Shown here: piece by piece, positions 91 through 39,729 of the stretch
Layout: the number at the start of each line of letters is the position of its first letter
Position numbering within the stretch: the stretch's first letter is position 1
NCBI GenBank assembly: GCA_008632985.1
Contig: QPGO01000008.1
Coordinates: 662,979 to 726,978, forward strand
Source of the DNA: Psammoneis japonica
Lineage: Eukaryota
Direction: 5' to 3'
DNA: 64,000 bases
Notes under the pieces: generated by a model
Databases searched by the model: none
Told to the model about the DNA's origin: nothing
The model's input: the letters and a program-made list of their open reading frames with translations, nothing else
Made by a program: the position numbers and the translations under genes

Positions 91-900
91 ATGATGTCTC
101 CATCAATAAGTCCCGGTGATAGAGACCATCCTCTTGAAGTTGGTGTGGTATTTGAATCGGTGACGAATAGCAAGGGGTGTGCTCACGAGTTCCGACTCGA
201 CAAGCTCGCAATGTACCTTGACGGAACAACTTCTGCTGGTTCTGCAATGAATCGACACGACCAATGTCTTGAATGTCGAAGAAACATTTCCATGGTCTGT
301 GATAAGGTTGTTGCTGCGTCGTCCGCCAGCGAAAGCATCAGAGTAGTTTCGTTTCGATACGGGAAGCAAGTGTACCGACTCGCCGTGGATGACAGTAACA
401 AGTGGTGGTGGCAGCGTGGGGGGATGACGGCACAAGCTAGAATAGCGGATTCCCTGAGAATGAATGCAAAGAGTGGTATGAAGGTGAGATTTTTTCTCCT
501 TTTCTCCCCCCCCCCCCCTTGGATCCTTTGCCACATCCATCATTCTTCACTTTGCTCCTTTCTTGATTTGCTCGGTTAGATTCTCTGCAAAGGGAAGGTC
601 ATTTATCCTGCTGCAAGCGGATCATATCAAGAAGTATCTAACAAAATATTGGAAATATGTCAGATGGATTGGAGTATGTCTAAGAAGCCCTCTTTGGTTG
701 TCATGGGCACCAGGTCTGGACAAGAAGTTCGAGAGCAGTCGAATGTTTTCAAGATGGTTTATCAGGTCTCGGTTCATGTAGCTCAGTGGAGTTTCGCTGT
801 GGCGCTCCACATAACTCAAAGCGCTTTTGAAATCATGTTATGGCCATTGAGATCGGCGGGATATCTCGCCCCATCACGCAGAGAAGGAAGAGAAGAATGA
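91..900 (+). CDS. Hypothetical protein, two exons (91-483, 580-900), possible ubiquitin-like C-terminal region
   Basis: ORF 55-579 splices in frame to ORF 649-900 via a GTGAG...TTAG intron at 484-579. The junction reads SGMK|ILCKGKVIYP, reminiscent of the Ubl KLIxKGK motif. Confidence 0.6.
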
Positions 901-1189
901 GAAGTTAATGCTCTCGTGCTTACCGTAGATTGCAATCTCTTTCGCCCTTCCGCACGTGATATTGCGGTTTCCTTTATGCCTTTGGTCTACCGGTCTACCA
1001 TTACGATATTTGTTCTCTCTAGAGAGAGTGCTAATGAGCAGTTTGTAGTTAGCTTTTCCTGCAGAGCTGCTCTCTAGAGTCCTAACTTGAGAGTCTCTCA
1101 GCTTCTTCGATCAGTGCTCTAGCTACTTCTACGAGCGGCTGTGACAAGCATCAGTTACAACTCATCTTGGAGATGGCTGCGCAGAATAT

Positions 1190-3285
1190 TTCAATTCCAC
1201 GGTGCTTCTGTGACTAAACAAGGGTGACCTGCACACTGCTGCTGACAGAGACTGCATGCGTCAGTGTTGTTGCGGAGAACTTTTGCCCACAAAGCAGAGT
1301 CCCTGATGGGACAATTGATTTGCCTGCAACAGAAAGGCCATGCAACAATCAATCACCCCCTGGCATTGCTTTGAGCAGGACATCCCTGTCCTCTGTTGTC
1401 TGATGCTGCTCTCCAGCCTCCTCATTCTTGAACCAATCAAAGAGTCAAATGCCATCATCAGTGCTGATTGCACTTGTGTGGCATGAAGTTCACACATGTT
1501 CTGAGCCTGAAATTTGTCAGGCTTCTTGAAGCCAATGAACAATCCATGTTTTCCAACACTGCAGCCCTTGCATTTGATGCTCGCATTTGCTTTGTCAACA
1601 CAGCCATTGACAGAGAGTGCAGCGCTCTGATCAATGGTCTCCCTGGAAAGGTGGGAGGTCATGTGCTGTCTGGCAGGTGCTTCATTGACCAGGAAACACT
1701 GCAACAACAAAGAGCCCATGCTGCACAACTGTGATTGGGTTGAAATGGAAGTGTGACAATGCATGTGAAGAAACTCAGAATTGGTGGTGGAGCCATCTTT
1801 CTGAAGCCACCAGAGCCTGCCATTTTGTGGGGCAGTTGACAAAGAGCTCCGCACAAAAGAAATTGTGATGAATTTTGGAGCTTCTGCAGGGCTGGGCCTT
1901 GCATGGCAATCAGAGAACAACAAGACAATCTTTTGGACATGTCAGCAAAATGATCAAGAATGCCAACAACAACCTGCTGTCAAGAGGGCTCCCATCTTTT
2001 GATGGGGCAATCTTGTCAACTTGGCTGGCTGCACACCAGCATGCTGCAGAGAGACAGAAAAGCTGTTCCTGGGGCAGCCTGGATGTCAGCAGATCTGCAT
2101 CTGTGCACAGGCAAACATGAAGACAAGAGCAAGAAACAGCCTCCTCAAACATGTCAGCAAACTCCTTTTGAGAAGCAGCGCAAAAAGGCGCGCTGCTTGG
2201 CAAGATGGCTTTGATGCAAAAAAGCCAGGGATCTGCACTGAAGCTGACAGTGGATGGCTTCATGGGAAAGCAAGGGAGAGCACACAAAGAATCACCCTGA
2301 CATGCTGTGACAAAAAGAGATTGGAGAGATTTTTTTCAGCAGAGTCTGCTTGGTCATGAGTTTGGGTCATTTTTGTGCAGCGCAACAGCAGCCAGTTGTG
2401 AAGCACTGCTGTCGCTTCAGCAACAACACTCACAAAAGGTCAGAGAACCCAGCTCTGCAGCAGTTTTTTTTTTGCAGTGGGGGGCAAGGCAACAACAACA
2501 ACCACCGTGGAAGCCCGCAGGAACACAAAGCAGTGGCGCAGCAGATGTGGCAACATGGGGCCAAGAAACATGCGCGCTGTGGTGTTTGGCATTTTTTCGA
2601 CATTGTCCTTTGCTCCCAGCAATGATGACAACAATGCCAGTGCAGTGCCAAGCACTCCAGAGAGTCTGCCGGGGTGTGCAACATCAAGCACCCCTCCCTG
2701 GCAGCAGCTGCAGCCCCCCGAGCATCGTCATGAGTTGAGATGTGGTGTGGCTTGTTGAGAGTCTGAAAAGAAGGTGCTTCTTGCAGCAACAATGTCAAGA
2801 AAAGCAGTTGCCAACAAAACCTTCCCAGTGGACTAAAAGCAGCACATTCTGAGCTGCTCAAATGGGTGGGTCACACCCTCTCCCTCTCTCTGGCGGTGTG
2901 CGGAAAAAAAAGAGCTCTCTCCACAGCACACGGCAGCGACCACCCAGGTTGTGGCTGCCAGCATGAGCAAGCTTTGAAAACAGAAGGTGGTCATGGCCAC
3001 CAACAGCATCTTTTGTGCTCCCATCACCAGAGCAGCCATTGCTGGTTTTTTGCGCATCTTGCTCGCCCCGTTCGTCATGGTGGCTGGGCAAGGCGGGCAA
3101 AAAAAAGTGGCGCACTTCTTGTGCTCAGCTTGTGTGTGTGATCACTTTCTCTGCCTCCTCTTGTCATTCAGAGACACACATGTTTGATGCATGTGCGTCA
3201 TCAAAGCTTTCCAGCAATTCTTCATCCAAAAGATGTGTGCAGTTGGCTGTTTGAGGCTTTGTGTGAGATGTGTGCAGGACACTCA
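1190..3285. other. TpA/CpG-depleted, TpG/CpA-enriched domain 1 (degenerate element or gene relics)
   Basis: Only two TpA seen in ~2.1 kb (1215 and 2834, both TAA). ORFs lack Tyr (e.g. 1261-1923, 220 aa, no Y) and are rich in C/H/Q. Flanks have normal TA/CG content. Confidence 0.9.
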
Positions 3286-3600
3286 TCTATCTTCCGCACG
3301 ACGTCAAGACAACGAAGTGGAATTGTCCGTCCGCGAATCTTGCAGAGGTCTCACCACGTGCTTACCTATAGGTTTTGTATAGATAATAGAGAGTACGCTA
3401 TCGGTACGTACCGGCAAGGCCTTTCGGCATAACGCGGATTCCAGATTTTTCGGATTTGGCGTTCGCATCTCGCATCATCAGCTGACTGCCATCACAGCGT
3501 ACTGTAGTCACAAAAAGAAGACAAAACTACGGAGGCGTGTGTGTCGATCATCTCTATCATAGAGCTTCTTTCAGCCATCGTTATTGATTCGTTTGCCATT

Positions 3601-4580
3601 ATGAAACTGCTTCTTTCCCTTGCTTTGTCGGTTGTCTGTGCTTCGGCTTTCTCTCCTCTTGCTGGTCAATCGACTTCTCGAGTTGCGTTGAAGAGTACGT
3701 AACATGATTCGCATTTGAAACTTTTCTCTCGCCCGAATGATCTAACGCATTCCTCCACTGAATTCTCTTCATACGGTTACAGTGGCATACGTTCCAGATG
3801 GAATGACGCCCCAGCAATGGAACAAGCTCAAGAACAAGGAGAAACAGGACAGGAACAAGAAGAACTGTACGTTGGATCTTTGTGTTTGTCTTGTCCCAAC
3901 CTTATGTCATCCCTCCCACTTAGTTTTGTTTCTATTTCTATAACTGCAGTTGCAGCCGTTGGTCCACAGTCTTTTAAATCTCGTTCCCTTCAGTCTTTCC
4001 AGGTGAGAGAGAACCAAGAATTCTTCTCGTGCGTGTGCCAAGGCTACTAACTCTCCCGCGCTAAAAATGCTTCTCTTGTCCTCTCTGCAAAATGAATTTC
4101 AGGAAGATATGGAAAAGGGGAAGGCCAGTCACTTGATGCCAGTCATGTTTGCGAAAGACAGGGTCAATAAGGGAGAACTTAAACAAGAAGACATCCCTTA
4201 CATGCAGAGGTAAGTAGGAGAACCCCACTTTTCTACTGTACGCCGAAGGGCGGAGCACGGTCCTGACTTGCTGCCTCGCCGTTTCTCTTGCTTGCATTAT
4301 AGGCTTGGTTCTTGGGATAACAGCGACGTGAAAGGCGCCAAAAAGACGGTAAGTGTCATTCTGACCTTTTCGTTCTCCTCGACCCGCATCGACCGCCGTA
4401 TTAATACTAATTTTCGCTGCCCATTGCTTCATCGTTTCCCAGAAATGGAATAAAACAGATGAAAAATACGAGAAGGGATTAGGTCATTTTGCAACCATGA
4501 CGGATAAGACAGCAAAGAAACCCTCCCAGAACCAAGGAAAGCCTGAGAAGAAGGGATTCTTTGGTGGCCTGTTTCCTTAA
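3601..4580 (+). CDS. Plastid-targeted hypothetical protein, 6 exons (3601-3694, 3783-3866, 3950-4002, 4103-4209, 4303-4348, 4443-4580)
   Basis: Begins with MKLLLSLALSVVCASAF-SP (signal peptide plus ASAFAP-type motif). Five GT-AG introns join in frame to AYVPDGMTPQQW...FKSRSLQSFQ...HLMPV...GSWDNSD...KKGFFGGLFP*. Confidence 0.8.
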
Positions 4581-4938
4581 AATTGTCTGTATAAGAGAAA
4601 GCAAGGAGACGAGTCAAGCTAACATTACACTTCTAACGAGGAAGTCGTCAACTTGCGAGAGGCGAAGCGCAGCTGAAGCTTTCACATTGTAGATATGAAT
4701 AGGGGGGCTTTAGAAAGTAGCAAAACAACACCAAAGCAAACTGCAAATAAACTGAAGAAGGCAAACACAAGGACAAGGACCAATGAAAATATATATTATA
4801 TTAGCGTATGGATATTAATGTATATCAGTTTTCATATATATCAGTTTTCATAGAGTATGCATGATTATATCAAATATTTTAACTTTCAGATTTGCGTAAT
4901 TCAACAGGAAAAGCCTCGTGTGCCTACCGATAGTACCG

Positions 4939-4954
4939 TACCGTAGGGCCCTAC
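4939..4954. promoter_or_regulatory. Palindromic TACCG(G)TAGGGCCCTA-type motif upstream of the lipase gene
   Basis: GTAGGGCCCTAC perfect palindrome at 4943-4954. Related motifs occur at 7186-7205 and 40266-40283. Regulatory function is inferred only. Confidence 0.3.
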
Positions 4955-5073
4955 AGTACCTGTTTTGATGTTGGATGTTCCTTCTCTGCATTCAGCCTCA
5001 CATCACAATGGGACGGTAAAGTCGTTGCAGTGCGGACGCAGACTCAGAGTCCGTGCCCACTTCTGATATTGCA

Positions 5074-6723
5074 ATGCCGCTACCGGTGGCATTAGGACCC
5101 GCTGCTGTGGGTGTGAAACATGCCGTTCTTCATGCGGCTAGTGTTTCGGATCTTTCTTATCTCTCGTCAGCGTCTCTTGCAGCGGTATTGGCGAGAATGG
5201 CTTGGAATCGTGTGCCTGATTGGATAAAAGAAGATGTAGCATTTCGAAGTGTAAAAAATGGAGAGGCAAAAGAAATGGAAAGGCTGTCCTCTGTTATTGA
5301 AAAACTTCAGGCTTTAGCTGATGTGGGTTCTTCGAAACTCGCGAAGCCGGTTCCCTATTTGCATGCTGCGATTTTGGCCTACGTGCAACTGTCGGCTCAG
5401 CTCAAGCTGTCGGGATCAGAGTTTCGAGACAAAACATACCAGGAATTCGGTGGAGAATACACGAAAGAAGAACTCTTGGAAATTAGGCAAGCTTTAGATT
5501 ACGCCACATGGGCGTACTACGTCGACGACAAAAAACTATTAGCTGGTTACCTGGAGGAGGTTGGGTTTAGCTTGCTCCACAATTCACTTCCGTCAAGACC
5601 TGGATACGTTGGCCATTACGTGGCCACATCACTCGATGAAAAGATGTTGCTTATTGGCGTGAAAGGAACATCTTCTCTGGAGGATCTGCTGACGGATTGT
5701 TGTGGCAGAGCTGTCGCCTATGACAGTGGTCTTTCGCGCGATGTGACTCGCATAGAAGTACGTGCCCGAGTCCCAGAGGTGGTTTCAGCCTCCGAAGATA
5801 CAGTAGAGGTCGCAAGTGGGCACGAAAGAATATGGGTGGAGTATGGGGAAGATCTACACATTCGCTGTCACGAGGGAATTGCCGTTGCAGCTAAAAGGCT
5901 GGCAGACGAGGTGCAGCATCATGTGCAGCGAGCGGTTTTAGAGTCTGGTTATAAGCTTGCTATTGTCGGGCATTCTCTTGGGGCGGGAGCGGCCAGTCTA
6001 TTGGCGCTCATTCTGCGGTCGCGTTTGCCAGAGTTGTCTGATCAAAGTATGCAAGTTTATGCAATTGCACCACCACCTGTGTTGGACCATGATACGGCGG
6101 CGGCGTCTGCACCCTTTATAACATCTGTTGTCAACAACTCCGACATCATCCCCAGATCTAGCCTCGCGAATCTTGCCGCCTTCTTAGAGTTTTTGCGGTC
6201 GGTCTCGCTTCGTCTCAAAGAGCTGGGGTTGAACCCAGGCGGCCCGCGGTCTACCGCGGCATTCCTGCAAAAGCTGTCTCAGGGAACCGAGGGAGAATCT
6301 ATCATGTCATTAGAAGAAGTCATGCGTGCAATGGGGAAGGCACACGAGAAAGTAGAGTTGATTGACCCAGTGAGTGACACAATGCAAAGCTTCGCATGTA
6401 TTTCGACTGACTATTCTCCATCTCACCTGCTTTGAATTCGTTCTTACTCTTACTTTTGTTGGTTCCATAAGGATCATTTGTATATCCCGGGACGGGTTTT
6501 TCTCATGTACGAAAGCTGGAATTCACAACGCCCTGTTGATAAAAGCTCGACCAATGGAATTGCTAGTGGTAATTTTTGTTGTACAACTTCTTTCGGAACA
6601 GCTACACCATTCCGAACGTTCGAGATTGATGGTTACCGTATGATGTCCGACCATATTACGGCCTCCTATTATCATGCACTTGATGAATTGATTCAGAAAT
6701 TATCTCCTGAGGACCCTACTTAG
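5074..6723 (+). CDS. Class 3 lipase (DAG-lipase-like), exons 5074-6369 and 6472-6723
   Basis: Motifs GVKGTSS..D..TD, CHEG, VGHSLGAG (nucleophile), VNNSDIIPR, LYIPG and SDH. GT-AG intron at 6370-6471. Confidence 0.9.
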
Positions 6724-7293
6724 AGTAGTCTCTCCTCACTTGTTTGCCAGCAGACACAACTGCATGCGAGAATTAGACTCATTCTTGCCGCTTGAATAGT
6801 CGGTTATCATGTGGAAGCACCGCTAGGGGAGAAATGCAGGGCTTGAGCACGTACGTGTGACTCTTGAACGAAGCTGTGGTGAAGGTGAACTCTCAGTAGT
6901 GCACTCTGGAGGCCTAGCTAGTCTGCCAGTGATCAAGATTGCCCAACATCACCCTTATTGACAATACTTGGTGCACAAGTGTACTAAATGTACGTTACCA
7001 TACGTCTCCTGTAGGGTATACTCTCTAGCTTCTGAACCCTGTAGAGAGAGGAGGGTGCTGCATCAATGTTGCATTTTTAAAACGATGTGGTCTCATCCAT
7101 AGTTTTCGAACTTGGGTTAGTGACATGGTGGGCCCCTCACTAGCAGTAGTTAGTAAGGCCCTCTACTCTTAGCTTAGCAGTAGAGTACCGGTAGGTGCCC
7201 TACCGTGCGTACTGTACAATACAAGGAAATAATGACCAATTTATCTGCGACCAAGACTCAATCGAGACTGGCAGACTGGCAACCTCGAATTGG

Positions 7294-7900
7294 ATGTCAG
7301 AAGAAAACAATGATCAACAGTGCAATGACGACGACGACGATGACCACAACCACAAAAGCCAGGACACCGCAGATGCCAAAACCTCGAGAAACACGTCCTC
7401 TGATGGGACAAGCTTTTCATGACTAAGATTTAGATGCAGCCAGACTTCACAGCACAGCACTCTTTGTCTGGATCCATGACTCTCCCGCACCCTTGCTCCC
7501 ATTTTTGACAATGCCTTTTAGAGACAAATGTTGAATGCACAGACAACAAGTGACGCTTTTTAGTGGAGGGCCTCTTTTGCAAATGATGGGTTGTGCATGG
7601 GTTTAAAACACCCAGTGCTTCAGAGTCTGTTGTGTGCAATGTCAACCCCCAGAGCTGCAGTCTTTTGCAAGTGACAAACTTTGAACCACCAGCTCTTGGT
7701 TGATGCTGCAAGTTTGCAGTGCTTCTCTGCCCACAGCTCTTCACAGCACATCTCTGATGGGGCCTGCAGCAAAGAATCAGTGCAAGTCTGGCACACCCTG
7801 CCAAGATCTTCCCAACTTGTGCAATTTTGAGACTGCACACTTGATGGCCACCTCTTCAGACTTGAGCATCCTCTTGCCCTGCTTGTCAAGGATTGAGAGT
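7294..7900 (+). pseudogene. Gene relic running from unmutated sequence into the hypermutated domain
   Basis: An ATG-started acidic N-terminus (MSEENNDQQCNDDDDDD) ends at TGA 7420. A protein-like frame from 7434 to ~7900 is interrupted only by TGA codons (expected from CGA) and contains no Tyr. Confidence 0.4.
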
Positions 7901-7906
7901 GCTCTT

Positions 7907-7930
7907 TGTGTGTGTGTGTGTGTGTGTGTG
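7907..7930 (+). repeat. (TG)12 microsatellite
   Basis: Direct reading of the sequence. Confidence 0.9.
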
Positions 7931-10900
7931 CAGTGGAAACAAGAGCTGCTTTTTTGTGAAGTGAGTGACCCCTGTCATTGCATGGTCTGCCATTCAGTGC
8001 CAAAAAAGCAAGGCTGCTGAGGATGCACTGTGTGCTGCATTTGCCACCATTGACAGCTGGCTTGAAGAGCCAGGAGATTTTTTGCCAACATGGCAAGTGC
8101 TTGTGATGGTGAAGCCCTTGAGTGTCATTCATTTGATGGTGCACCATTTCTCTTGCCAAGCACTTGTTTCTTTGTTGGTTTTTTCATCTGCGGCATTGCC
8201 CTGATCCAGCCACAAACTTCAAGAAGAGCAGTGAAAAATTTCCTTTAAGAAGCCCTTTCACTGACATGAGAAGAGAGAAACCCCAACAACCTCAAATGAC
8301 AGTGTTCTGCAGCATTGCTTTGTGCTCACTTTTGTCGTTTTGCTGTCATTCCACTCAGCACTGAAGGGAAAAAATGCAAAAATGGCGGGCATTGTCACCC
8401 AGTTTGTTGGTGGCTTGAATGTGACAGCTCAGCTGCTGTTTTGGAAAGAGTGCAGGTTTGTGTGACAATGCATTGTTTGGAAACCAGCCCAGCCAAGGGA
8501 CAGTTTTCTGCTGGAATTTGTGAATGATCAAAGCCATGTGGCACCACAGCACTGGCACCTTCAAGAACTTGGTCAACCTTGACGAGTGGCTGGGCATGAC
8601 AAAGTTGGCTCACATGCTGGACACCAGCAGCGCAAAAGATCAAGCTGGCTTGTGCATGAAATGAGCTCCCAGTGTCCAAATGAGCACATTGTTCATCTGT
8701 TGTGAAGCTGGCTGCATTGACTTGAAAAGAGCAGTGCTGAGTGCCCAACAGAAAAATGTCAAGCACGTGCAAAGGTGGGTTTAGAGAAATGCAGACAGGA
8801 GTTGATTGCCACAAACCCATCGCCATCTCTGAGCTCATTGCTGCCAGACTTGGAAAAATCATCTGAGGCATCACTGTGGCAGGCATTTTCAACCCTCTCC
8901 TGCATGTGTTGGTGCTGGAAGAGCAGGTGATCATTGCTGGGAACAGCAGTGACATCTGGTGGCAATTCCAAAGCTGGAAAAGGTTGGATGAGATCAAAGT
9001 CAGCCACAAAGAGGAAGAGATGTTGCAGCAAAGAAACTGGAAGGCCCTCTTTTACAGTCACCCTGCTGGCATTTGTTTTGTCTTGATGAAAAGAAAACAG
9101 GCTGCACTGCAGGTCTGAAACAAACTGTGCAACAGCTTGATTGAAAATCTGAGCTCAGGGGAAAATGGACTCAAAAGGTGCAGATTCTTTGAGCCAAAAG
9201 CAAACATCCTCTTCAAGGTGTCCTTGGAATTTTAGAGCATTTGCCATGACAACTCTTCTGCGGGAGTTCTTTGGACATGGACATGATCATGTCAGAGTGC
9301 GCATCACCATGATCAAGGTGGCCTGTCTCACAGTGAATTTTGACCCTCTTCACAGGTGAAATTTTCACACCATGACAACCAGTTGTGTGCATGGCAAAAA
9401 TTTGTCAACCGTGACAGATGAGTTTTTCCTTGTGAGAGTGCCCAGCCACCCTCCATCCCTGCAAAACCTGTGTTGTCAATGTGATGCTTTGTTTCATTGC
9501 TCAACTTCAATTTCAACAATTCAACGCATGCGGCATGGTGTGCACAACAGTTGTCATCAGTGACCGCCAATTTGGTGCTTTGCCATGTGCTGCATTTGAT
9601 TTTTGCAATTGGATGGGCCACATCAAGGTGCGCCATTCCTTTGCCAGACTGCTGTTGTGTTTTGTGCCAGCTCATCTTTGCTTGAGCTGTCTTCTTCCTC
9701 ATGGTCTTTTCCTTTTTCCTCTTCCAAGTCATTCTCATCATTGCCAGAAAGCTCCAGAGCATTGCCAGCATTTTTGCCACCCTCTGCACTGGCTTTTTTT
9801 GTGATTGTGGCACTCTTGCCCTTTTCATTGCTTGGTTTCTTCTTGCCATTGCTGTGCCCCATGTTGAGCTGCACACCTGGCTCACTTCTTGATCTGTCTT
9901 CCTCAACATCTCAGCATTGCAGAGCTTGTTGAATTCCTCTGTTCCTGCATCTCCCCACAAGTTGCACTGTTTTGTGGGGTTGGTGTGAGCAGGCACAGGG
10001 TTTTTTTGTTTCCTTTTCCCCCCTCATTTGCAGCTCCCTGCTGGATTTTCTTCTCCTTCGCTGCCTTGCATTTCCAAATTTTCCAGCAGTTTTCCAACGT
10101 TGACAGCCCCATGACCTCATTGCTTGCTGCAGCCATCTCTGTGGCCTTGCTGTTTCCCAACTCCAATTTCCTCTTTTTCCATGCCACAGTGCTCTTGGAG
10201 AATTTTGGCACATTGTTGCAGAACCAAGAGCACGCTTTCTTGTTGGTCTGCTCTTCACTCACAATGGTTTCCACAAGCTTGTCCTGTCAAATTGGCATGA
10301 GTGGTTCTTCAATGGGCCTCATGTCCTTCTTTCTCTTTTTTGTTTTGTTTTGTTTTGTTTGGCTTGTCCTCTTGCCATTGATGGGCTCCCACCACCCTGG
10401 TTTCACCCACACATTTCCTGAGCTTGTTCTGTTGTCAGCACAACTTGTGCAAATGAGTGCTGTGTTGGCAGCATCATCTTCAAACACCTTTTGGCAACAT
10501 TTTCTGCACAACTTGCTGCTCATTGCATTCTTCATTGTCACTTGGGTGACGGCATTCCTTTTTGCGCTGACTGCATTTGGGGCACACTTTTTTGCCCAGT
10601 CTTCCCATGTCCCCCCCAGTCTTGCTTGCTGAATTTGCCACTGGCTGTGTTCTTGCACATCAGGCATGACACCTTTCCACCACTCAACACGTCTGCCTCA
10701 GTGAGGAATTTTGCTTTAAGAAAGAGTTCTCATCTCTGAGCCACCTCTTCAACTTTCATTGGTGTCCTCCACTTGCTTCTGTCCACTCTCATGATGCCTC
10801 TCTAACCTTGGGCTGAGTGGCCCTTTTCTCAGGCTTGTCCTTCCTTTGCTTCAGCAGCATTCTTGGCATGCTGGTTTTGCAGGTTCTAAGTTGTTGATGA

Positions 10901-12024
10901 CTTTTGTTGCAGCAAATGGGTTGCAGGTCTTGTCAAAACTGCCTGCCATTTTCATCTTAATTCAAACCACTTTTTTCCCTGAATTTGTGAAGTTTCAAGA
11001 TTGAATGTTCAGCTCAATCACACCACTCAACTGCCTGAAAACATGCAAAATTAATCAAATTACACACACGTGAGCATTTTGAACCACAAAAGCACTCATT
11101 TGTCAATGAGTTCAATGCACACATGTTTCCTGCCACAGCTGATTTCTTGCGTCATGTCTCACTGACATCATGCCACTGGGGAGTTGCTTCTGTTTAAAGA
11201 GCAGCTGTGGCTGAGATGGCTCATTGTGCTCCCTGTGCATCACACACAGAGTCTCAGTTGGAGCTTGCATGTCATGCAGTTGCACCCACACTGCTTGCTT
11301 TTTGCTGTCTCCAGTGATGGCAATTTTTTTTTGTGCCACAGTGGTGGACATGGGTTCTTTTTTGCACATGTGGGCTCCAGCTCTTCTCTTCTGTTTTCAT
11401 GTTGTTTTCTTCTTCTTTCAGCAACCTCTCACAGCCAAGTTAAAAACTTCCCTTCCACCAACAGATGCATCAGTTTCTCTGAAGCCTTGCATGACCTCTC
11501 AGCCTGTGTGTTTCTGTTGAGAAAAATGCACCTTTTCTGCTTGATGATGTCCATGAGCTCTGTCAGTCAAACAAAGGGCCCTTGGTCCTGGAGATCAGTG
11601 TGAGCAGCTCATCCTTTGCTGGCACCTTGATGTCCTCCATGTCTGTGCACATGCACCACTTTAGTGCACACTGCAAAGGCACCACAGATCGGAGGTCCCA
11701 CAGCTTCACAGGTGCAGCTGCAGTGTCCACAATGTGTGTTGCCAATGTGAGAACAATTGCCACAATTCCCCTTTGCCAGAACCAAATTGTTCACCACATT
11801 CTCTGTTGCCCCAAACTTGATGAGGCAGCAAAGAACATGCTTTTCCCACAGATGCTTGTGTGCTTTGTCCTTGTGCAGGTGAGCTCTCTGTGCCACCAAT
11901 TTGTCTGGGTTCAGATCATGGCACAAGTGATCTGGAAAGCTCGCGTGGCATGTTTTGCACAGCAGTCTCAAGACCAAAATGTGTGCCACAAATGGTCACA
12001 TCCCCAACCACCAGAGCTGTGCTG

Positions 12025-12240
12025 TCTCCCTTGCTTTCCACTTGCTCATGTGCCAAGTGAAAAATTGACGGCACAGTGTGAGATGCTCAAATTGTCTGGC
12101 AAACCCAGAACTGGATGATGAGTGCAAATCTTTTCATCCTGCATTGCTTCTCCCCTTGCTTTCCACTCATTTGTGCTCCAATTGAAAAATTGATGGCACA
12201 GTGTGAGACAATCAAATCATCTGGCAAACCCAAAATTGAA
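12025..12240. repeat. Diverged direct duplication, ~90 bp unit, ~125 bp spacing
   Basis: TTGCTTTCCAC...TGAAAAATTGA.GGCACAGTGTGAGA...TCAAAT..TCTGGCAAACCCA starts at both 12031 and 12156. Confidence 0.9.
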
Positions 12241-15200
12241 ACTTGCTTTTCACTTCATGCAGATGACTCAAGCTTTGTGGTGGTTTGTCCATCCTCAAAA
12301 TCATTGATCACAGTGCACGCAAAATCATTGTCACCTGCAAAAGTTTTCATTCATGCAATGAAAACAATGCAACCCATTCTGTGCCCTTTTTGTGTTGTGT
12401 TTCCAGCACTGTTGTCTGAATTCACCCACTTTGCATGACCAAACCAAGCAACAATGCCACCTCCATTTTAGCTTCATGCAATGCACAACAGGCTCTTGTC
12501 ACAACATGAACAATTGAATGACTGACCAAAGGAAAACAACCAGCCCATCATGTTGCAAAGAACAGACATTCTTGTGCACACTCAGCTGCTTCCATTGCAA
12601 TCCCCATTGTGACTCTGTGGCTTGTGAGAGGGTCAGCTCATTTGGTCCAGCACCAGCTGTGCCATTGTTGCTGCATCTTGGTGTGGTTGTGGTGGGTTGA
12701 ACTTTTTCAGCAAGGAGCAATGGTCATTGAAGCAGCAGAGAATTGGAAGAACTTGGCATGTTTTTTCAGCTGTCACAAACATCCGACTGGCTTTGTCAGG
12801 TGTCAAACAAGGCTGTTGGGGTGCACCTGAGTTGCCCCTGTTTGAGGATGCGGCGAGCCTCCGCCAACACTGACACATTGCCAGATGCCATGGGAGGAGC
12901 TGGGTTCGAAGGAGCAAAGATCTTGGCCTTCTTGTGAGGGACAGTCAAAGAAGGCGCTCTTGTGGAACAAAGAAAAAAGCAGAAAAAAGCAATTCACAAC
13001 AAGACTGAGGGACATGGGCATGCTCAGGTGAGCAAGTGTGCTCACCAGCATCACACAAACAGGTGCCATCTTCATGCTTCCTTCTGGCCCCATGTTCAGG
13101 TTTTGATTTGCAGCCTCATTTGTGTTTGTCTTCAAAGTGGTCAGCACTCTGGTCACGCATTCTGCATCAAAGCATTGTGAGCTGCGCTTGTTGCTGCACC
13201 CGGGGTGGGTGCCGGGATGCTCCTTTGGACAAAATGCTTCCCAAATTCTTGCTCCATGGCATTGCCATCCTTCATCACCAGCACCCAGGTCCTTTGTGTC
13301 ATGTGCTTTGTCTCCCCCAATGCATGCCTCAGTGGCTTCCTCCTCTGACTCAACTTCATTTGACTCACGAAGGACAAGAAAGCTGTTGAAAAATGTGTGC
13401 CACCCCTTCTGGGTGTTGGCCTTCCAAACAATTTGCAAGAGCCAACAACTTGTGTCCTTTTGCTTGCATGCCATGCAACACATGACCATTCCAGTGACAA
13501 AGCAGGCACCATGAATGTCATGAATGTGCTTGGTGGTCATCATTCAAGGTGCAAAGAGATTGACACACTTCAAAAAACAGAAAAAAGGTGTGCCTGTTGG
13601 CGGGGCATTGCACCATTGGCACACAAACTCAACCATTGCCTTGATGTTGCAGTGGAGGTCACAACAAAGCTGCCTCTCGTCCTTCCCCATCTCAACAGGT
13701 GTTGCAAAGAACTTTGGAGCATCCTCCAACTTTCTGTGTCAAAGAACACAGTCACCCTTTGCTTGGCGGGATCTGTTCATCCCCAAACCACAAGCATTGA
13801 TGCAGGACCACATGTCAGGACATTGGAGAGATTTCCTTGCAGTGTTGTTGGTGCACACATGACTTTCACAACACGTGGAACACAGCAAAGCTTTGGCTTG
13901 TGGCAAAGGAAGGGAAGAGCCAGGAACTCTGGAGAGGGCACCCAATTTGCAAAAAGTGCTTTTTTTAGAGGCACACACTGCAATTGCTTTTGAGCTTCAA
14001 TCAAAACAACTCCATTCCAAAGCCATTGGCAAGGTGTTCTGTGTCATCAAAATCAACACTTGTGTCATTGAAGACAAGTGAGGGATTGGGGTTGACCTCA
14101 TTGGCTGGTGGGGCAAAGTTGTTCACTGCTGTGGCCAGTTGTTGATTGGGGACAATGTGCAGAATGCACACAAATCACAAGAGTTCACACTCTTGCCTTT
14201 CAATGTTTGGGAAGAGAGGAGGTTGTGCTGTCATGAAGTGCACGCAAATTGCACATGTAAAAAAATTCAGAAAAAGCCATGGACCAACATGCTCTGCAAA
14301 TCTGGGAAGAAGGAAAAAATGAGTGTGCGCACTGCTTGGTGGCAGCAATTTGGGTGTGCAGGGGCAATGTGATGAGTGCACAAGAGTGGGAAGGACAAAG
14401 TCAAAACCAAGTTAAGCTGAAAAGCAACAAAGAAACTGGTGCAGGCATCACAAAATGGCAACTTTGCAAATGGAGTTGACCGTTGCATGTGCACCGCTGA
14501 AGCCTGTGGCTGTTGGGAAAGTTGACATTCAGACAAACAATGAAGCATGACAAACAAAAGCACTCATTGTTCTGTGCTGTCACTCTGCTTTCACACATTT
14601 GATTGGCAATTAAATTTGACAAAACTTGTGCAAATGATTGCAAATGAAAGTGAAAACCCCTGTGCCACAACCTCTGATGGCATCAAGTTTTCCAGCATCA
14701 TGCACCCAACAACTCCGGATTTTGTGGACCATGGCAGTGGCTGCAGTTTCTCCATTGGTTGAACAACACTGCTGAAGATGACTTCCCACATTGCATGATG
14801 CACGCACACTGCAAAGAGGCTCAGAGTGCACCACACCAAGATCTGTGACACTCAAAACAGCAAGCGTCATCAATCATTTCTTCACAATGCTGTGGCAACA
14901 AGCACAAGGCTCTGAAGCAGATTTGGCACAACAGCTGCCATGCATTTGACCACACAAAGGTCCTGGTTTTGTGTGAACAGCAGCTGACCCAAGCAAGAGG
15001 AGATGATCTGGTGCTGGCAGAGTGCTGCTTGCTTTGAAGGATTTTCTGCAGACATGCACACCATTGTCTTTAGCTTCAATTCAAAATTGGGGATGACCCC
15101 AGAGAGAGATGGCTGTTTCTGTCAAAGGTGCAAAAAATGCTCCAAATTCTTGATGCTCATGATGAGTGAAAGTTGTCTGCAAAAAACAACACAAGTGTGC

Positions 15201-15689
15201 TGAGTGCCAAATTGTTGAGACATTGTTTGCACTTTGTTGCATCAGTGTCTGACAGCCCACTTGTGCTCTCTCATCCCCTCATTGTTCTCGCCATGCCTGC
15301 ATTGCAGGTGAAAAAAAAACACCAACCAACTCTCAACTCAGAGACCCCTGAAGTTCCTCTCATTGAGGGAGCTGATGCAATGCAGTCTCTTGCACAACTG
15401 AGCTCAGCAAAGATGTGTGTTTGAGACACCTTCTTGTCAACAATGTGTCAGCTGCAGAAAAAGACCAAGGTCATCTTCTCTGTCATGCACGCTCTGCACT
15501 GGCACACAAGATCAAGGCTGCCCAGAATGGGGGCTGCAAGAAACTGTGCCTGGTGTGCACAGGAGAGCACCCGCTTGATGGCAACCTGGTGTTGACTGAC
15601 AAACCACCATGCATCAAGCCCCCCCCCCAACTTTTGTCAATTCTCAAAGAGAGAGGCTGCTGCACACATGCCCAACTTCCAGGGAGAGA

Positions 15690-17460
15690 TCAAGGATGTT
15701 TGCTTGTGGTTTGAGAAGGAAATGTTCCATCTGAGTGTGGTTTGTTGTTGTGAACTGAGATTTTCAACTGGGCAATCACAGCTGGTCTCAAATCCATTTC
15801 ACAGCCAGTTGTTTTCACCATGACAAGATGAGTGCAAGGCAAGAACTGGCTGTGAAAGAGGGGCTGCCAGTCTTGTCACTCTGTCCACCAAGCCCCTTGA
15901 GCTTTTTTGTCTCACCCAACCTTCATCAGCTTCAACATCTCTGGATGATGTCGCTGTGCAATCTCAGATGATGATCCCCACCACTCTTCTTGTGATGGGC
16001 AGGAGAGGAGTGAAGAGCCCTGCACAGCAACCCAAAAGATCAGCGGAGTTGGATTGCAACAAATTTGACCATGGCAACAGTTTTGTGGCAGTCAATTTGG
16101 CCAATGTTGCTCAACAGTTGCCTCTGAGTGCACCTCATGTTGCTCATCAGATTCTCAGCATGAGTCCTTCCAAGCCAATGCAGCCAATTTTGCTGAGGAG
16201 GATGAGCAAGAGCATGTGCAGCTGGACACTGGTGCAGACATTTCATGTTCACCTGAGAGCTTTTTCTGCCAAGATTTTTCCCATGCTCTCTCAAAGCCAA
16301 CCCAGCTCTTGATGGCACAAGTGCTTCTGTGCACAGCATGGTTTTGGACATCTGTGAGGTCTGGTGGAGAGCTCGCTTGATTGGTTGCATCAATGTTTGG
16401 ACATGTTGTGATCCATGTGATTGCTCAATGCAGACTTCACAAAAATGGCAGTTGGCTCAAGGGCTGCAGTTTAGAGCACATTTGGCACCTCCAAGTTTGT
16501 TGCATGGCATTGTCCATGGAAAAGTCAGGGTGTTGCCATTTGCAGGCAACTGATCAATGGGAAATGTTGTGCTGACCCTTTCACACCCCCAACTTCAGTT
16601 GAGACACTTGCTGATTTGATTGGCAGATCAAAAGAGCAGGGCCTGCTGTCCTTTGGCAAAGCGCGCAAGGCTGTCCTCATCACTGTGGGCATGGCTGAGG
16701 TGCATCATGATGATCAACATTCTCTCCTTCATGAAGAATGCAAGGACTCCTGGCTCCTTGAGTGTGTCAGAGCTGTCCTTTTGAAGAGCTCATAAAAGCA
16801 AGCTCCCCAGTCCAGCCCCTCAAGACTGGTGCCAAACACCTTCTTTGGCATCAGCAACTTGGTGTTGTCCAAGTGACTGCTCTTGCTTGTCTGATGCTCG
16901 CAAGGATGTTGACGGTGCTCTCAGTGGGTTTTCAGTTTGCTTGCGGCACTTTGCCTTTGGACTGACAATTGTTGCCCTGCTTGTGCCCACACCAAGGAAA
17001 TGAAGGAACCTCTGCTTGTCCCAACACTGCCATGACTGCCATCCAACCACGTCAAGGCTTTGCTGCAGATTTTCTCTTTTGTGGTGTCAGCAGTTCAAAG
17101 GACTTGGAATGCATGGAGGATTTTGTGCTGGGTTGAGCGGCAAAACTTGTTGGGCAATTGTGCACAATGACTGCCATTCAAAAAACAACTTCAGGAGGAG
17201 GCAGCAAATTGCACCCTCACAGGCTCAGCAGCTCTTCAATGGTGGCCATCATTTTGTTGCACCACACCACGCCCTTCTCTGGAAAGAATGTCTCTGGCCA
17301 GAAACACCCCATGCTGGAGGGCAGTCATTTGCCCGTTGGCAGGAGCACTGTCTGCTGAGCAATGCTCATGGGCAGCTGATTAAATTTTGGCTGTGTGCTT
17401 TTCATTGCTGCTGTTTTCACATCAGAAGCACAGTTCCTTCCCAGTGCATTCTGCGCCCCC
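15690..17460 (+). mobile_element. Degenerate Ty1/Copia (CoDi-like) LTR retrotransposon gag-pol fragment: protease, GAG-pre-integrase, integrase
   Basis: Motifs occur in Copia order: possible decayed zinc knuckle ~15696-15738; QLDTGADISC aspartic protease 16219-16248; LLWHQQLG 16840-16863; CPAC 16973-16984; PRQGFAADFLFCG (first catalytic D) 17047-17085; FWLCAFH 17385-17405. Many frameshifts and TGA stops. No RT or LTR recognised. Confidence 0.8.
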
Positions 17461-18155
17461 CCCCTCCCATGCACAGAAACAACAAGAGAAGTCAGACAGC
17501 TGTTTCTTGGCACAAAAAATTTGCAGAAAATTGCTGGGACAGAAGGGCCATTTTTGGATTGTGCTTTTGGCCTGGCCTTTGCTGCTGCTGATGACTTGTG
17601 CGTGCCGCCGACCGCTGGTTTGTCAGAAGTTGAGCACGTGGCTGGCACTGGCACGCTGCATTGTTTGGTTTGCTGAGGGCTGCCAGAAATAAAACACTGG
17701 GTGCATTTGTCACACCTGCCAATGGGGTGAATTTCTTCAAGGCCAGTGATGCAGCAAAAGAGCCACAACAAGTTTGTGGCTGTCCAGGTGCGCCGAACTT
17801 TGAGAGACTCTGTGTGCTTGTGCTGGGGCATCGTTCTCGGAAGAATTGCAAAAGGTCAAGATCCCAAATTGAATCTGCACAAAGCTCAGTCAGATGCCCA
17901 CAAAAATGTGTGAGGCAGAAGTTGTGTTCTTGAAAGTCACAGCAGCAAGAAGTGTTTCATTCACTCTTGTGTGCCGCGAGGTGTGCGAACCCTTAGCATG
18001 ACCACAGGCTCAAGTTCAAGCCGAATCTCATACAGTGCGGTACGAGCTCCGAACTCCAAGATTTGATCCAATACATCTGCGTGCAAGCACGCGCTTCGCG
18101 CGAAAACCAGCTCAAGTGTACGAACGAAAACAAAAAATAATTGAGAAATGGAAAG

Positions 18156-19123
18156 ATGGAGCAAGAAGAAGACGTCTTCCTCCATGAAAACCTGGCGAGA
18201 GCTGGATCACGCTTTCAACGTGGGTATCCTTATCGTCAACGAGATAAAGGCTACTACTATGAGGAATCATCAAGAGATCCCTTTTATTTCAAAAGCCTCC
18301 AGTCCAAGTTCTCCTCGCTTTGGCCAGAGGTGAATTTTGGGGGTAATTTTGCTATTCTTACTGCTTTTTTAGTCATATGTATTTTTCAATTTCGAGGTAA
18401 GTCGCGTTGCGAAATTCCGTATTCAAGTCTGTGACGTGACATCATGGTCATCATGGTAGGTCGTGGATGTGATTCCTTGCCAACATCAACATGCTAACAC
18501 TTTGTTCGCTTCGTAATGGACCGTGCGATGCAACAGGAGCTATTATTCCCAGGCTGAAAATAGTGCACGAAAACTATTTGTCAGGGTACTGGCTGGTTGA
18601 TTGGCTGCTGGATCTGTTTGACTACATTCGTGCATATGTGCACATAGCTGCGGATGTTTTGCGAAATCTTCGCTTCCTTATAACTTCACCCTCCGGTTCC
18701 TTGCTAGAAAGCGATGCGGATGCCTCTCTCACTCGACCAGATCAGAGCGGGAAGAATCGAAGGAGACGGAGATTTCGGGAAAGCACCTCTGCGGCGATGC
18801 CAGCATTGGAGGACGTCACGGAGCACAGAATAGATGCAAAAACCGAAAGTGTTCCCGCCGATCAAGGAGACTCAGTCACACGGGATTTTGATTCTACATC
18901 ACTTAATGCAGCAATTGATCAAGCTGAACATCCTGGGTATCACGATGAAATAGAGCCCGCGTTCCTGAACGAAGAAGATTACCCTCCAGGGTGGATGGTA
19001 TACCACCCTGTTCTTGGAGTTGTAGCCAAACAAGAAGCAGATAGATATCGCCAGGAGAAGGAAATACAAGTATCTCATACGATATTCCCGGTGATGACGT
19101 CTCCTGCAATCGAAGCATCTTAA
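18156..19123 (+). CDS. Hypothetical membrane protein, exons 18156-18396 and 18537-19123
   Basis: GTAAG...CAG intron at 18397-18536 joins two ORFs in frame. Hydrophobic segment FAILTAFLVICIF. Confidence 0.65.
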
Positions 19124-19572
19124 ACATCTAAGTTCACCGTGATCTTACGCGCACCTACAGTACTACTATACTCCTTTTTTCATCGTTGCACGTCTGCAGA
19201 CCTACAGTATGATTACCTTGCTTGATGGTGTTGTTTAGTAGAACTTGCAAAATAGAAGTAGCCGAGAGTGGCGGGGACATGACCATGACGGCCGGCAGGG
19301 GGTGGTTCTGGCGGTTCTGGGGCGCAGGCGGGGTGCAGAACACGACGGACGAACCTCCAAACCGGCGTGGTCGGACTAAACAAACGCAAAACGCTTCGCA
19401 AACCGCCATCAGCCATCAATGGCCAACTTGAAACTTGCCAAGGTTGCTTTGTTTCTTGTCTCCCGTCGACCGTGGCCTCCACACCAGTTATTGCCCAGAA
19501 TTGTTCTGAGGCTGGAGCAGCCGTATCAAATTGTTCAAATTAGATAACAAAGATTCGAGAGATACAGTTCTC

Positions 19573-29072: not shown

Positions 29073-29097
29073 AATGCTGGTTGTGCAGATAATAGTA

Positions 29098-29713
29098 GAT
29101 CGACAGCGTAGATCACACTACGAGTGTTTTCTAACAACGATAATAACGACATAAAATGGGATAAAGCATTCAGAAACAGCTGGCTTCGAGTTACTTCTAG
29201 AATAGTTGCTTTACCCCCACCCAGCCAATCACAACTTCGATGCTAAAGATCACGAGGCATATCTATGGAACCCTGTTTGTCAAAGAATATAATGTCCATA
29301 AAAGTGATCGACAGCGTAGATCACACTACGAATGCTTTCTAGCAACGATAAAACGGCATGAAAAGAGATAAAGCATTCAGAAACAGCTGGCTTCGAGTTG
29401 CTTCTAGAATAGTTGCTTTACCCCCACGCACCCAATCACAACTTCTATCCAAAAGATCATGAGGCATATCTATGGAACCCTCTTTGTCAAAGAATATCAT
29501 GTCCATAAAAGTGATCGACAGCGTAGATCACACTAAGAATGCTTTCTAGCAACGATAACGACATGAAAAGAGATAAAGCATTCAGAAACAGCTGGCTTCG
29601 AGTTGCTTCTAGAATAGTTGCTTTACCCCCACGCACCCAATCACAACTTCTATCCTAAAGATCATGAGGCATATCTATGGAACCCTGTTTGTCAAAGAAT
29701 ACCATGTCCATAA
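29098..29713. repeat. Tandem repeat, three copies of ~207 bp
   Basis: GATCGACAGCGTAGATCACACTA begins at 29098, 29306 and 29513. The units are highly similar throughout. Confidence 0.95.
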
Positions 29714-36681: not shown

Positions 36682-39515
36682 ATGAAGTTCCGCAGAGCAA
36701 CACTTGCCCTTGCCTTATGCCTTGGCTTTGCCGCAGCCTTCACGTGAGTTTGAAGTTTGCGTTTGACTGTCAATTTACACGATGAGACGTCTACTAGAGT
36801 AGGAATATGATTCGGTGATCCTCGACTTCGCGGAACAAAAACACGCAGCGTGTCAGTCGCGTACATTGTGAAACCTTTGTGAAGGCGGAAGATTCTGTGA
36901 AGTATCCAGATTACTTGTTGCCGACTTATTCGTACTCACTTTCTCAGATTGCTGTAATCACTGCATCGCTTCCAGGGTGCCTTCTTTTGGTAGCCGCCAC
37001 AATGCAGCCGTCGCATCTAGCATGCTCATGTCAACAACAGCAGAAGTGAACGGAGTCGAGACTGTGAGTGGTTTCATGATGGATGTTTCACATTTTTCTT
37101 TCAGATAGAGACTTACATTTGGTTCTTTATCTCACCTTTGTTTAGGAAACGGTCAAAGAGACTCCTTCTGTCATGAGGCCACCGATTGACATGCCTTGGG
37201 GAAGCATCTCGGAGCAAGTAAGTGCTACTTAAGTTTAAAAGATGTTTTGGCGATTTCTGTGTGCTTAAAATTATTTTAATTTTATTCTCAATCAACAGCT
37301 TCAGGAAAAGTTTGGCTACAGTGCTGAAGAAGTTGCAGCATACAACGACGAACTTGAAGGCGACAAGTATGCCTTGTTGAAGCTGTACAAGGCGATGACC
37401 ATGGCGAGAGGCTTTGAAAACGCCTGTAACCAGGCGTACATGCAGGGAAAGATCAGAGGTTTCATGCACTTAGACAACGGTCAAGAAAGTATCCCAGGAA
37501 TGGTGGATTACGCCATCAAGAACGATGACAAGAAGTACTCTTACTACCGCGAACACACCCACGCGATTGCAAGCGGCGTAGATGCGGGCGCCGTCATGGC
37601 AGAGCTCATGATGAAGGATGGGGGCACATGCCGCGGTGCCGGTGGATCCATGCATATCTTCGACAAGGAGACCTACTTTCAGGGAGGATGGGCCCTTGTA
37701 GCGGAACAACTGCCATATGCTGGCGGTGCAGCCAAGTCTATTTTGCTCGACCGGAAGCTTGGTCTTTCAGACGACGAGAAGATCAACAAGCAGAACGTTG
37801 CCCCTCCTGAAGATGATGACCGCATCTCGGTTGTGTTTGTAGGAGAAGGAGGATCTCAAAACGGTCGCATGGCTGAGTTGCTCAACTCTGGTGCCAAGGA
37901 TAATCTTCCACTTCTCATCATCACCATCGACAATGGACGTGCCATCAACACTTATACACCGGATATCGCCCAGAACAGCTATGTTTTTGAGCAGGGGTCA
38001 CATTATGGCGTCCCGGGTTTGCTTGTCGACGGTTTGAACGCTGCAGATGTTGCAAAAGGTGGAAAGGCTGTCATTGACTACATTCGCAAGGGAAACGGAC
38101 CAGCTATTCTACAGGTACACACTTATCGTTTCAACGGGCACTCCCCGGCCGACCCTGAGCACGAACGTGGCCGCAAGGACGAAAAGGCGTGGGCTCGTGC
38201 AGAGCAGGATCCTTTGAAATCCTTCGAGGACCAGTACATTTCAAAGGGTGTTTTCACCGAAGACGAACTCAAAACGGCAAGAAAGGAAGTGCTCGCTGAA
38301 GTAAAGGAAGCCGTCAAATTCGCTGACAGCTCGCCAATGCCCCCAGTTGAGCTGGCCAAGGAACTTGAGTACCCAGATGTACCTGACACTGACTACAATC
38401 AGAAGCCAGCTCCCGAATTCGCTGCTGAGGTCAATGCTCGTACCATCAGCCCGGAACAAATGGCCACCGTTACCGCTCATATTGAAGACCTTCGCGCCAA
38501 GGCCGAGGCCGGCGAAATTTCCATCGGCGATGCCATCAACCTTGCCATTCACGAGGAAATGCTTCGCGATCCAACCACCACCATTCACGCCGAAGATCTC
38601 CAGGCTGGTTCTTCATACGACATTCCCAAGCTGACACAGCAGACCTACGGTCAGATTCGTGCTGCAGATGAAATCATCGACGAAGGTCATTTTATTGGTA
38701 AAGCTTTGGGCGAGGCTATGAACGGATACCGCCCAATTGTTGAGTTGATGAATACCAACTTCGGAATCTACGGTATGGCAGAGATCAGTTCTGCCGGCAA
38801 TACCTATGCCACCACTGGTGGCCAGTTCGACATGCCCATGACAATTATTGGCGCTGGTGGAACCGCTCCTAACCAGGCGCTCGGTGCCGAGCACAGTCAG
38901 CCTTTCCACGCCTATGTGATGGGTATTCCCGGACTCAAGATTTGCACGGCGGCTTCCCCTGACGCTGCGTACGGTATCACCAAGAGTATGATCCGCGACA
39001 ACGGCCCATGCTTTCTCTTTGCCCCTGTAAAGATGATGAAAGAAAGCAAGGGTCCTGTTGATCTCGGTCAATGTATGCCACTCAACAAGGCTGCTCTCTT
39101 GCACAAGGCGTCTGAAGATACTGTCAAGGCCGGGAATGCTGTCACTGTGTTGACCTACCTGCACGGTGTCAAGGAATGCCAAGCTTCAATTGAAGCCATC
39201 CAAGAGGAAGGATTCGACATTGACTTGATCGAACTTCGTACGTTGAAGCCGTTGGACATGGACACAATTTCCACAAGTCTTGCTAGGACCAACAAGCTTT
39301 GCATTTTGGACGAGTCCACCAAGAGTGGAGGAGTTGGTGCGACGATCAGCGCTCGAGTGTCTGAGGAGCTGTTCGATCTCCTAGACTCGCCGGTAAAGAG
39401 GCTTTGTATGGACGATGCACCAGTTCCGTATGCGTCCAGCATGGAGGAGGCTGTTGTGAAACGGGGAAGTGATTTGATCGAAGGCGTTTTTGATCTTTGC
39501 TCTGGAAACTGGTAG
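36682..39515 (+). CDS. Plastid-targeted pyruvate dehydrogenase E1 alpha-beta fusion, copy 1 (three short 5' exons, long exon from ~37299)
   Basis: MKFRRATLALALCLGFAAAF presequence. Alpha motifs GKIRGFMHL..GQE, YREH, GGSMH and TYRFNGHS.AD. Beta motifs RPIVE, AEHSQ, LRTLKPLD and PVPYA. Confidence 0.93.
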
Positions 39516-39729
39516 AAAATTCAGTGTGTTTAGAATGGTATCTTATGATGCTAGCTCAACGAGTGACATCCGCTAGCCCTATTTCCATAATATTATAGAA
39601 GTTTTTCATACTGTTGTAGCTATCTGTGGCATCAACTTCAAGCCTCTGGAGCACCACTGGAAGGTCGGAAGCTTCCGCAAAATTCGTACCGGTGACAGAC
39701 GTGTGGAGCAGGGAACAGGGCGGTAGGGG

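Follow-up and report, generated by a model that had tools for sequence, protein, structure and literature searches.

Targeted hypermutation of unwanted DNA is known in fungi, where it shapes genome structure. Ascomycete RIP preferentially changes CpA to TpA and so creates TA. Methyl-CpG decay of the vertebrate type turns CG into TG or CA symmetrically and site by site, and leaves TA untouched. Deaminases of the ADAT/TadA type act in RNA loops on an A that follows U or T, where A becomes G, and fungal mRNA editing favours UAG. In repeats of Puccinia and Microbotryum (Pucciniomycotina), C-to-T hypermutation that prefers TCG has been described (PMC12730594). DNMT4, which is related to RID and whose function is unknown, occurs in 31 of 60 diatom species (PMC9998398). 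Our literature searches, which were of limited depth, returned no report of a joint loss of CG and TA, or of RIP-like mutation, in diatoms.

We examined a stretch of 64,000 nucleotides (the window) that is read as diatom nuclear DNA, since the proteins of its flank ORFs are eukaryotic (histone deacetylase, RING finger, Kelch and JmjC domains, lipase, aminotransferase) and since its E1 dehydrogenase alpha-beta fusion has its top matches, at 89% identity, in the genomes and transcriptomes of diatoms. A search of the whole window for tRNA genes and Rfam families returned no tRNA and no Rfam match. Embedded in this otherwise normal DNA are two blocks from which CG and TA have been purged, and the larger of them carries a short tandem copy. 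Overall, with a probability of roughly 0.55, we read the locus as a ~125-nt tandem copy in a partly repeat-derived stretch without recognisable genes under saturating transition mutation of CG and TA. The purged stretches are as follows.

1216-3287, no strand: second, smaller purged block, with 1 TA in 2072 nt and CG reduced to 14.5 per kb.
7243-17993 (10.7 kb), no strand: main purged block, its limits given as positions of single TA/CG steps.
7243-7500, no strand: edge zone of the main block, TA purged (only TAs of the TTA/TAA class remain), CG intact.

At 250-nt resolution the two blocks extend over ~1250-3250 and 7250-18000. In the main block TA stands at 2.2 per kb, versus 39.9 in the flank, and CG, which is purged from ~7400-7500 onward, stands at 7.5 per kb, versus 55.8. 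The differences per kb between block and flank are -48.2 for CG, -37.7 for TA and +83.4 for TG plus CA, and GC content is the same in both. In 2-kb bins over 8001-18000 the observed/expected ratios are 0.10-0.20 for CG, 0.01-0.07 for TA and 1.7-2.05 for TG and CA; over 18001-64000 they are 0.82-1.08 for CG and 0.41-0.73 for TA. A flat simulation applied to the flank lowered the dinucleotide RMSD to the block from 35.1 to 10.0, an improvement that is mostly forced by the removal of CG and TA themselves. The conserved YR total (237.8 versus 240.2 per kb) was dropped as evidence of conversion, being near-automatic for any sequence. The block shares with RIP of Neurospora and other ascomycetes (RID) its saturating transitions, its confinement to limited stretches, the involvement of both strands and the untouched flanking genes. 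The two differ in the fate of TA, however: RIP raises TA, whereas here TA is nearly gone and CA and TG are enriched.

The left edge of the main block is sharp and falls between 7221 and 7243. CG in the edge zone is near-normal, at 42.6 per kb, and even its sensitive contexts are kept (TCGA three times, ACGA four times). The zone includes a GACGACGACGACGAT run, which in one frame reads as poly-Asp. Two further zones keep CG and have no TA in a sensitive context, namely 2450-3250 (CG 25 per kb) and 12700-13900 (CG 12.5 per kb). Either TA loss is faster and further-reaching than CG loss, or the DNA of these zones came TA-free and then lost CG. Farther in, a (TG)12 microsatellite lies at 7907-7930. 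Over 7605-17994, GC steps rise to 74 per kb, versus 59, and TGCA rises threefold, which a context-dependent model explains only in part.

Several palindromes are enriched in the block over the flank, including TGCA (16.0 versus 5.1 per kb), CATG (9.9 versus 4.1), AATT (6.1 versus 4.0) and AGCT, and TTAA is barely depleted (0.87 versus 1.35 per kb). This enrichment, the spared TTAA and a rate of TG/CA swaps that equals or exceeds the single-transition rate rule out a general avoidance of palindromes or restriction sites. The share of TG in TG plus CA along the block is 0.518, with no autocorrelation at lags 1-10 and a dispersion of 0.99 relative to the binomial. The choice between TG and CA is thus about 50/50 and made site by site, so that the two strands were hit to the same extent. 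This speaks against long strand-specific tracts, and also against an RNA or cDNA intermediate that was edited in single-stranded form.

The tandem copy at 12020-12262 allows individual sites to be followed in two related sequences. By gapped alignment it consists of about two units of ~125 nt each, with an ungapped core of 86 nt.

12020-12144, no strand: unit 1, with ungapped core 12028-12113.
12145-12262, no strand: unit 2, with ungapped core 12153-12238 and a 9-nt indel relative to unit 1 near the end.
12043-12094, no strand: span of unit 1 that holds the four swap sites and the retained CG at 12069, with partners 125 nt downstream.

The cores differ at 16 of 86 positions, by 13 transitions and 3 transversions, and over 96 columns the units are 95.8% identical in purine/pyrimidine space. 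Half of the 16 mismatches fall in four double differences in which one unit has TG and the other CA (12043/12168, 12047/12172, 12084/12209 and 12093/12218), and a CG/TG difference lies at 12069/12194. The remaining 15 aligned YR steps are alike in both copies (8 TG/TG, 7 CA/CA). An initial annotation of this region had reported the four TG/CA differences and the one CG/TG difference, and pairwise alignment confirms them, with a chance probability of 1e-4: when 13 transitions and 3 transversions were placed at random, at least four swaps arose in 20 of 200,000 trials on copy 1 and in 21 of 200,000 on copy 2. The swaps are also far too many for independent double hits: two independent transitions at the local rate would give 0.1 swaps in the 19 sites, where four are seen (P = 2.4e-6). 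The aligned minus-strand codons that it listed (CAA/TGA, CAT/TGT, CGT/CAT and ATG/ACA) are correct in one frame, but coding in that frame is unsupported because the 125-nt spacing is not a multiple of 3 and no protein relative of the region was found. No homologue covering 12025-12240 was found among the contigs of run X1 at 80% likeness or in protein searches.

A duplicate in the normal part of the window serves as a control.

37296-39516, plus strand: E1 dehydrogenase normal duplicate, with its inverted partner at 50866-53086; 2221 nt ungapped, 92.6% identity.

The two E1 copies differ by 165 mismatches, 95 of them transitions and 70 transversions, and their CG and TA are intact, with 104 CG sites and 61 TA sites common to both. 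Two swaps occur among 502 aligned YR sites (2 in 460, with 0.63 expected), a fraction of 0.004 that is a tenth of the single-transition fraction of 0.037. Compared as swapped to same sites, the tandem copy (4:15) and this control (2:293) differ with a Fisher P of 1.4e-4. Between the E1 copies, CG/TG differences are strongly one-sided, with 26 CG/TG versus 5 CA/CG. As this 2.2-kb duplicate, whose copies lie 11 kb apart, is untouched, duplication alone is no trigger. RIP is triggered by duplication and mutates both copies of a duplicate; parts of the block have diverged copies elsewhere, the block holds two internal repeats, and the 92.6% E1 duplicate is unmutated.

Because transitions keep purine/pyrimidine identity, the window was recoded into these two letters and the block was searched against the recoded window. 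The search recovered a second, larger repeat within the block.

8628-9268, plus strand: arm A of an ancient inverted repeat of 640 nt, visible only in purine/pyrimidine space.
15639-16271, minus strand: arm B, the partner of 8628-9268.

The inverted repeat scored 96, versus at most 40 in shuffles, and 228, versus roughly 64-106, with laxer scoring. Its 566 aligned positions comprise 323 identities, 178 transitions and 65 transversions. At 88 sites both arms have a YR step; 52 of these agree, 32 show a TG/CA swap and 4 are partial. Independent transitions at a rate of 0.30 would give 7.6 swaps in 84 sites, as against the 32 seen (P = 6e-13). Extension of the repeat outward and inward did not rise above shuffled controls.

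The swaps bear on how the dinucleotides were lost. In the inverted repeat the swap fraction is 0.38 (95% interval 0.28-0.49), versus an ordinary transition fraction of 0.30 (P = 0.07), and in the tandem copy it is 0.21 versus 0.07 (P = 0.04). Since swaps in the block match or exceed single transitions in frequency, CG and TA behave as short-lived, hypermutable intermediates that are left almost at once and to either side, and since these intermediates were converted rather than eliminated, mutation rather than purifying selection is indicated. The data thus support, as the best reading, post-duplication mutation of both strands by way of palindromic CG/TA states. The initial annotation had drawn this conclusion from the tandem copy, and it holds up, with swaps present in the purged block and not in the normal duplicate, and with the larger repeat in agreement. 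It had also set a CG or TA ancestor at each swap site. Passage through such states stands, but the presence of CG or TA at the very moment of duplication is not established. A homologue with TG or CA at these sites, which had been named as a refutation, would leave the hypermutability standing, because hypermutable CG/TA lets TG become CA through a short-lived CG or TA.

As to timing, one-off resolution of ancestral CG and TA predicts a swap fraction of 0.20, which fits the 0.21 of the tandem copy and is below the 0.38 (0.28-0.49) of the inverted repeat. Continuing turnover predicts a swap fraction near the transition fraction, and is not clearly rejected (P = 0.07 and 0.04). Probably one-off and continuing resolution are mixed, and the swap data separate neither.

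The ancestry of the CG-derived sites is seen most directly in two parts of the block that have relatives elsewhere.

9339-10672, no strand: block part with diverged copies elsewhere, summed contig depth 150-320 versus ~58.
12674-14674, no strand: block part with many diverged copies elsewhere, summed depth 245-764, CG 12.5 per kb.

The extra contigs over these parts align at 80-95% likeness and represent diverged copies elsewhere in the genome. Near the second part, no TA occurs between 12470 and 13965. A highly repeated element lies at 13880-13940, with a depth above 9000 at 13903 versus ~58, and its copies diverge beyond 13617 and 13938. Transitions dominate the differences between the diverged copies and the block (A>G 37, C>T 42, G>A 40, T>C 36), with 3-12 of each transversion type. 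Among 40 listed differences, out of 219 in total, 12 show CG restored at sites that read TG (5) or CA (7) in the block. These restorations establish CG ancestry for the repeat-derived parts of the block.

The loss of CG follows a neighbour rule. Relative to flank density, survival is 0.018 for TCGA, 0.05-0.12 for contexts with one T side and 0.46 for GCGC, and all ten CG classes fit additive per-strand rates, with loss ordered by the 5' base as T, then C or A, then G slowest. Swap sites were assigned with these context rates and the flank frequencies of NCGN and NTAN. The model favours a CG ancestor at 12043 (likelihood ratio 3.4-6.4), 12047 (6.4) and 12093 (6.4), because these three sites have a 5' T, where TA would almost always become TG and both products would seldom be seen. 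At 12084 the modelled CG/TA ratio ranges over 0.9-6.4, depending on the copy whose 3' base is taken as ancestral. The choice between CG and TA, which the initial annotation had left unseparated, can thus be narrowed in part: CG is directly seen at 12069 and is favoured by the context model at three swap sites, but not clearly so at 12084.

The CG rule resembles the hypermutation of Pucciniomycotina in that C-to-T change is confined to CG and strongly prefers a 5' T. The targets there are repeat-rich, whereas the block has extra depth only over 9339-10672 and 12674-14674 and is otherwise single-copy at 80% likeness. As described for that group, which belongs to another kingdom, the process acts on cytosines only; in the block TA is erased too, more completely than CG and under a context rule of its own. 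We know of no diatom enzyme for hypermutation of the TCG type. Methyl-CpG decay is alike in its symmetric CG loss without strand tracts, but the preference for TCG is unlike it, and the block also loses TA.

The rule for TA is stricter. All 23 surviving TAs in 7605-17994 lie in TTA or TAA (TTAA 9, TTAG/CTAA 9, TTAC/GTAA 3, TTAT/ATAA 2), which has a chance of 5e-8 if they arose at random from TG/CA sites of the block and of 9e-11 under the context mix of the flank. The other six NTAN classes hold no TA, versus about 263 expected at flank density. The survival values of 0.64, 0.25, 0.06, 0.04 and 0 agree with a rule acting per strand, by which T on the 5' side prevents the change. The products were compared in a test that took rates from survivors only and applied them to the mostly coding flank in place of the ancestor; for TG/CA trinucleotides the RMSD fell from 7.85 to 5.52 with the TA rule, to 5.54 with the CG rule and to 4.9 with both. 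With the context rules the misfits of GCA, TCA and ATG are repaired, and CAA and CAC fit worse. In its presumed change of A to G after T, the loss of TA is like the action of ADAT/TadA-type deaminases, which are a candidate mechanism only; they act in RNA loops, whereas the strand symmetry of the block points to double-stranded DNA. Unlike the targets of fungal mRNA editing, TAG and TAA are poor targets here.

What the block is can be described largely by exclusion. It is positioned between expressed genes. Run X2, whose label is DNA followed by a question mark, has GT..AG joints and thus transcriptome-like behaviour, and its joints at 3694-4442 and 18394-18535 mark introns in the genes flanking the blocks; it covers the flanks and leaves 1335-3335 and 7338-18009 without cover, an absence that we do not count as evidence. 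Elsewhere in the normal DNA, 29089-29713 holds a tandem repeat of period ~209 nt, with about three copies at 91-94% identity. Six-frame Pfam searches that read through stops as X returned no family in 7250-18000 (E <=0.01) or in 1100-3400 (E <=1). A protein search with 12142-12698 (minus strand) gave four candidates, none of which scored. The 246-aa ORF at 12806-13543 (minus strand) had two hits among 1.84 billion representatives (E = 8e-6 and 1e-4), which were judged spurious, as internally repetitive unrelated proteins. A hexamer coding model in purine/pyrimidine letters scored 76 of 420 block windows above 12, a weak signal in patches, and to this model the strands are indistinguishable (median 25 versus 21 in known genes). 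Searches for LTRs and TIRs in nucleotide, YR-canonical and purine/pyrimidine space found no terminal repeats, the only long pair being the internal one at 8628-9268/15639-16271. A transposable element, which should have terminal repeats and encode a transposase or RT/integrase, was considered and set aside, as neither feature was found. When metagenomes were scanned with a YR-degenerate pattern of 37 nt, taken from the segment with the most copies, no match appeared. Across 80 diatom metagenome loci around E1 homologues (446,938 bases) there was no TA-free run of at least 350 nt except one 75%-GC stretch, and these loci, gene-dense and many of them transcript-sized, have little bearing on block frequency. 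The description that suits the block best is that of an old insertion, composite and derived from repeats.

Could the pattern have been written by the sequencing itself, through misread modified bases or a conversion-type library that turned CG and TA into TG and CA? The per-site 50/50 choice of TG or CA could resemble strand-dependent misreading. Run X1, however, contains 0.99 of the words sampled from 8000-17500, and its contigs, aligned at 80% likeness, cover the block at a depth of 58-68, as in the flanks, with 0-1 differences; X1 is perhaps the source sample, and so no independent confirmation. Single X1 contigs bridge both block edges (501-7893 and 14384-19364). Cover at flank depth excludes an artefact of consensus or polishing, and strand-dependent conversion would have left two half-depth versions and changed duplicate copies alike, hence without swaps. 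We therefore consider a technical origin very improbable. The X1 contigs break at (TG)12. A 6.5-kb X1 contig (7939-14412) differs from the window solely at 12020, by T versus C. This TG/CG site stands where the duplication begins, and the difference, of the type under study, may be segregating or strain-specific. Selection offers a biological alternative, in which the block, for example an integrated virus or element, gains from lacking CG and TA, perhaps by escape from a nuclease or from methyl-directed silencing. The sharpness of both block edges would suit this idea, but selection against intermediates should make swaps rarer than single transitions, and they are as frequent or more so. Nor is anything recognisable encoded, given the absence of Pfam families in six frames of both blocks and of real protein relatives. 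TTAA is spared though GTAC, CTAG and ATAT are absent, RY-centred palindromes are enriched, and CG density is uneven within the block. Selection is thus an improbable explanation, if a less remote one than artefact.

A closer competitor holds that only CG was hypermutated in place, by a methylation-driven or RIP-like process with TCG preference, and that the DNA arrived TA-free. The diverged copies speak for it in carrying CG and no TA: among the same 40 of 219 differences, 12 restore CG and one restores TA, as half of a CA-to-TG swap, and beyond this half-swap no TA was seen at TG/CA sites of the block among those 40. By our own count, the loose ends of these copies (six consensus strings, 135 nt) hold 4 CG and no TA, with ~5 TA expected at flank density, so that TA-freeness may predate the diverged copies or belong to the repeat family. 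The zones without TA but with intact CG, the preference of the context model for CG at three, or all four, of the swap sites, and the four swaps in 19-20 sites, of which CG-only resolution predicts ~2.3, are likewise compatible. Yet an intrinsically TA-free family would still require a cause, the block is for the most part single-copy at 80% likeness, and both the strict TTA/TAA rule among survivors and the product bias of the TA rule look mutational. The swap fraction of the inverted repeat exceeds the 0.12 expected from one-off CG-only resolution. Moreover, with the arms 30% diverged by transitions, TG and CA should have given rise to TA again in every context unless TA is still being removed, and no TA occurs in the sensitive contexts. 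We infer from these points that TA was probably lost by mutation rather than absent by inheritance, and judge CG-only mutation of TA-free DNA to be rather unlikely, though it deserves more weight than either artefact or selection.

For the reading of joint CG and TA mutation, a sequence of events can be proposed. In both blocks, CG would become TG or CA, and TA would likewise become TG or CA, on either strand and site by site. CG would be lost fastest after T (TCG) and slowest after G, and TA completely unless it has a 5' T or a 3' A, with TTAA almost spared. The swaps would then be the footprint of CG or TA resolved on opposite strands in the two copies. Such a process would presumably act on the double-stranded DNA of a silenced domain. 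Loss of CG could proceed by cytosine methylation and deamination, and loss of TA would require a second activity that changes A:T to G:C at TA. For the latter, candidate chemistries are adenine deamination on DNA, thymine oxidation by an enzyme of the TET/JBP type followed by mispairing with G, and error-prone patch repair begun by cytosine deamination. Tentatively, a two-armed, defence-like hypermutation, with a cytosine arm that prefers TCG and a TA arm that spares TTA and TAA, may erase CG and TA from silenced DNA; under that proposal, and held as loosely, the TA arm might be in outcome the mirror image of RIP. In kind, the process behind the CG arm is known and only the instance is new; the TA arm, with its strict neighbour rule, is unmatched in the literature searched.

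Comparison in purine/pyrimidine space recovers repeats that transition mutation hides from ordinary alignment. If the proposal is true, a mutational activity that removes TA under a strict neighbour rule, acting on A:T pairs of double-stranded DNA, would be new. As purged stretches are easy to spot, diatom genomes could be mapped for the process and candidate enzymes linked to it.
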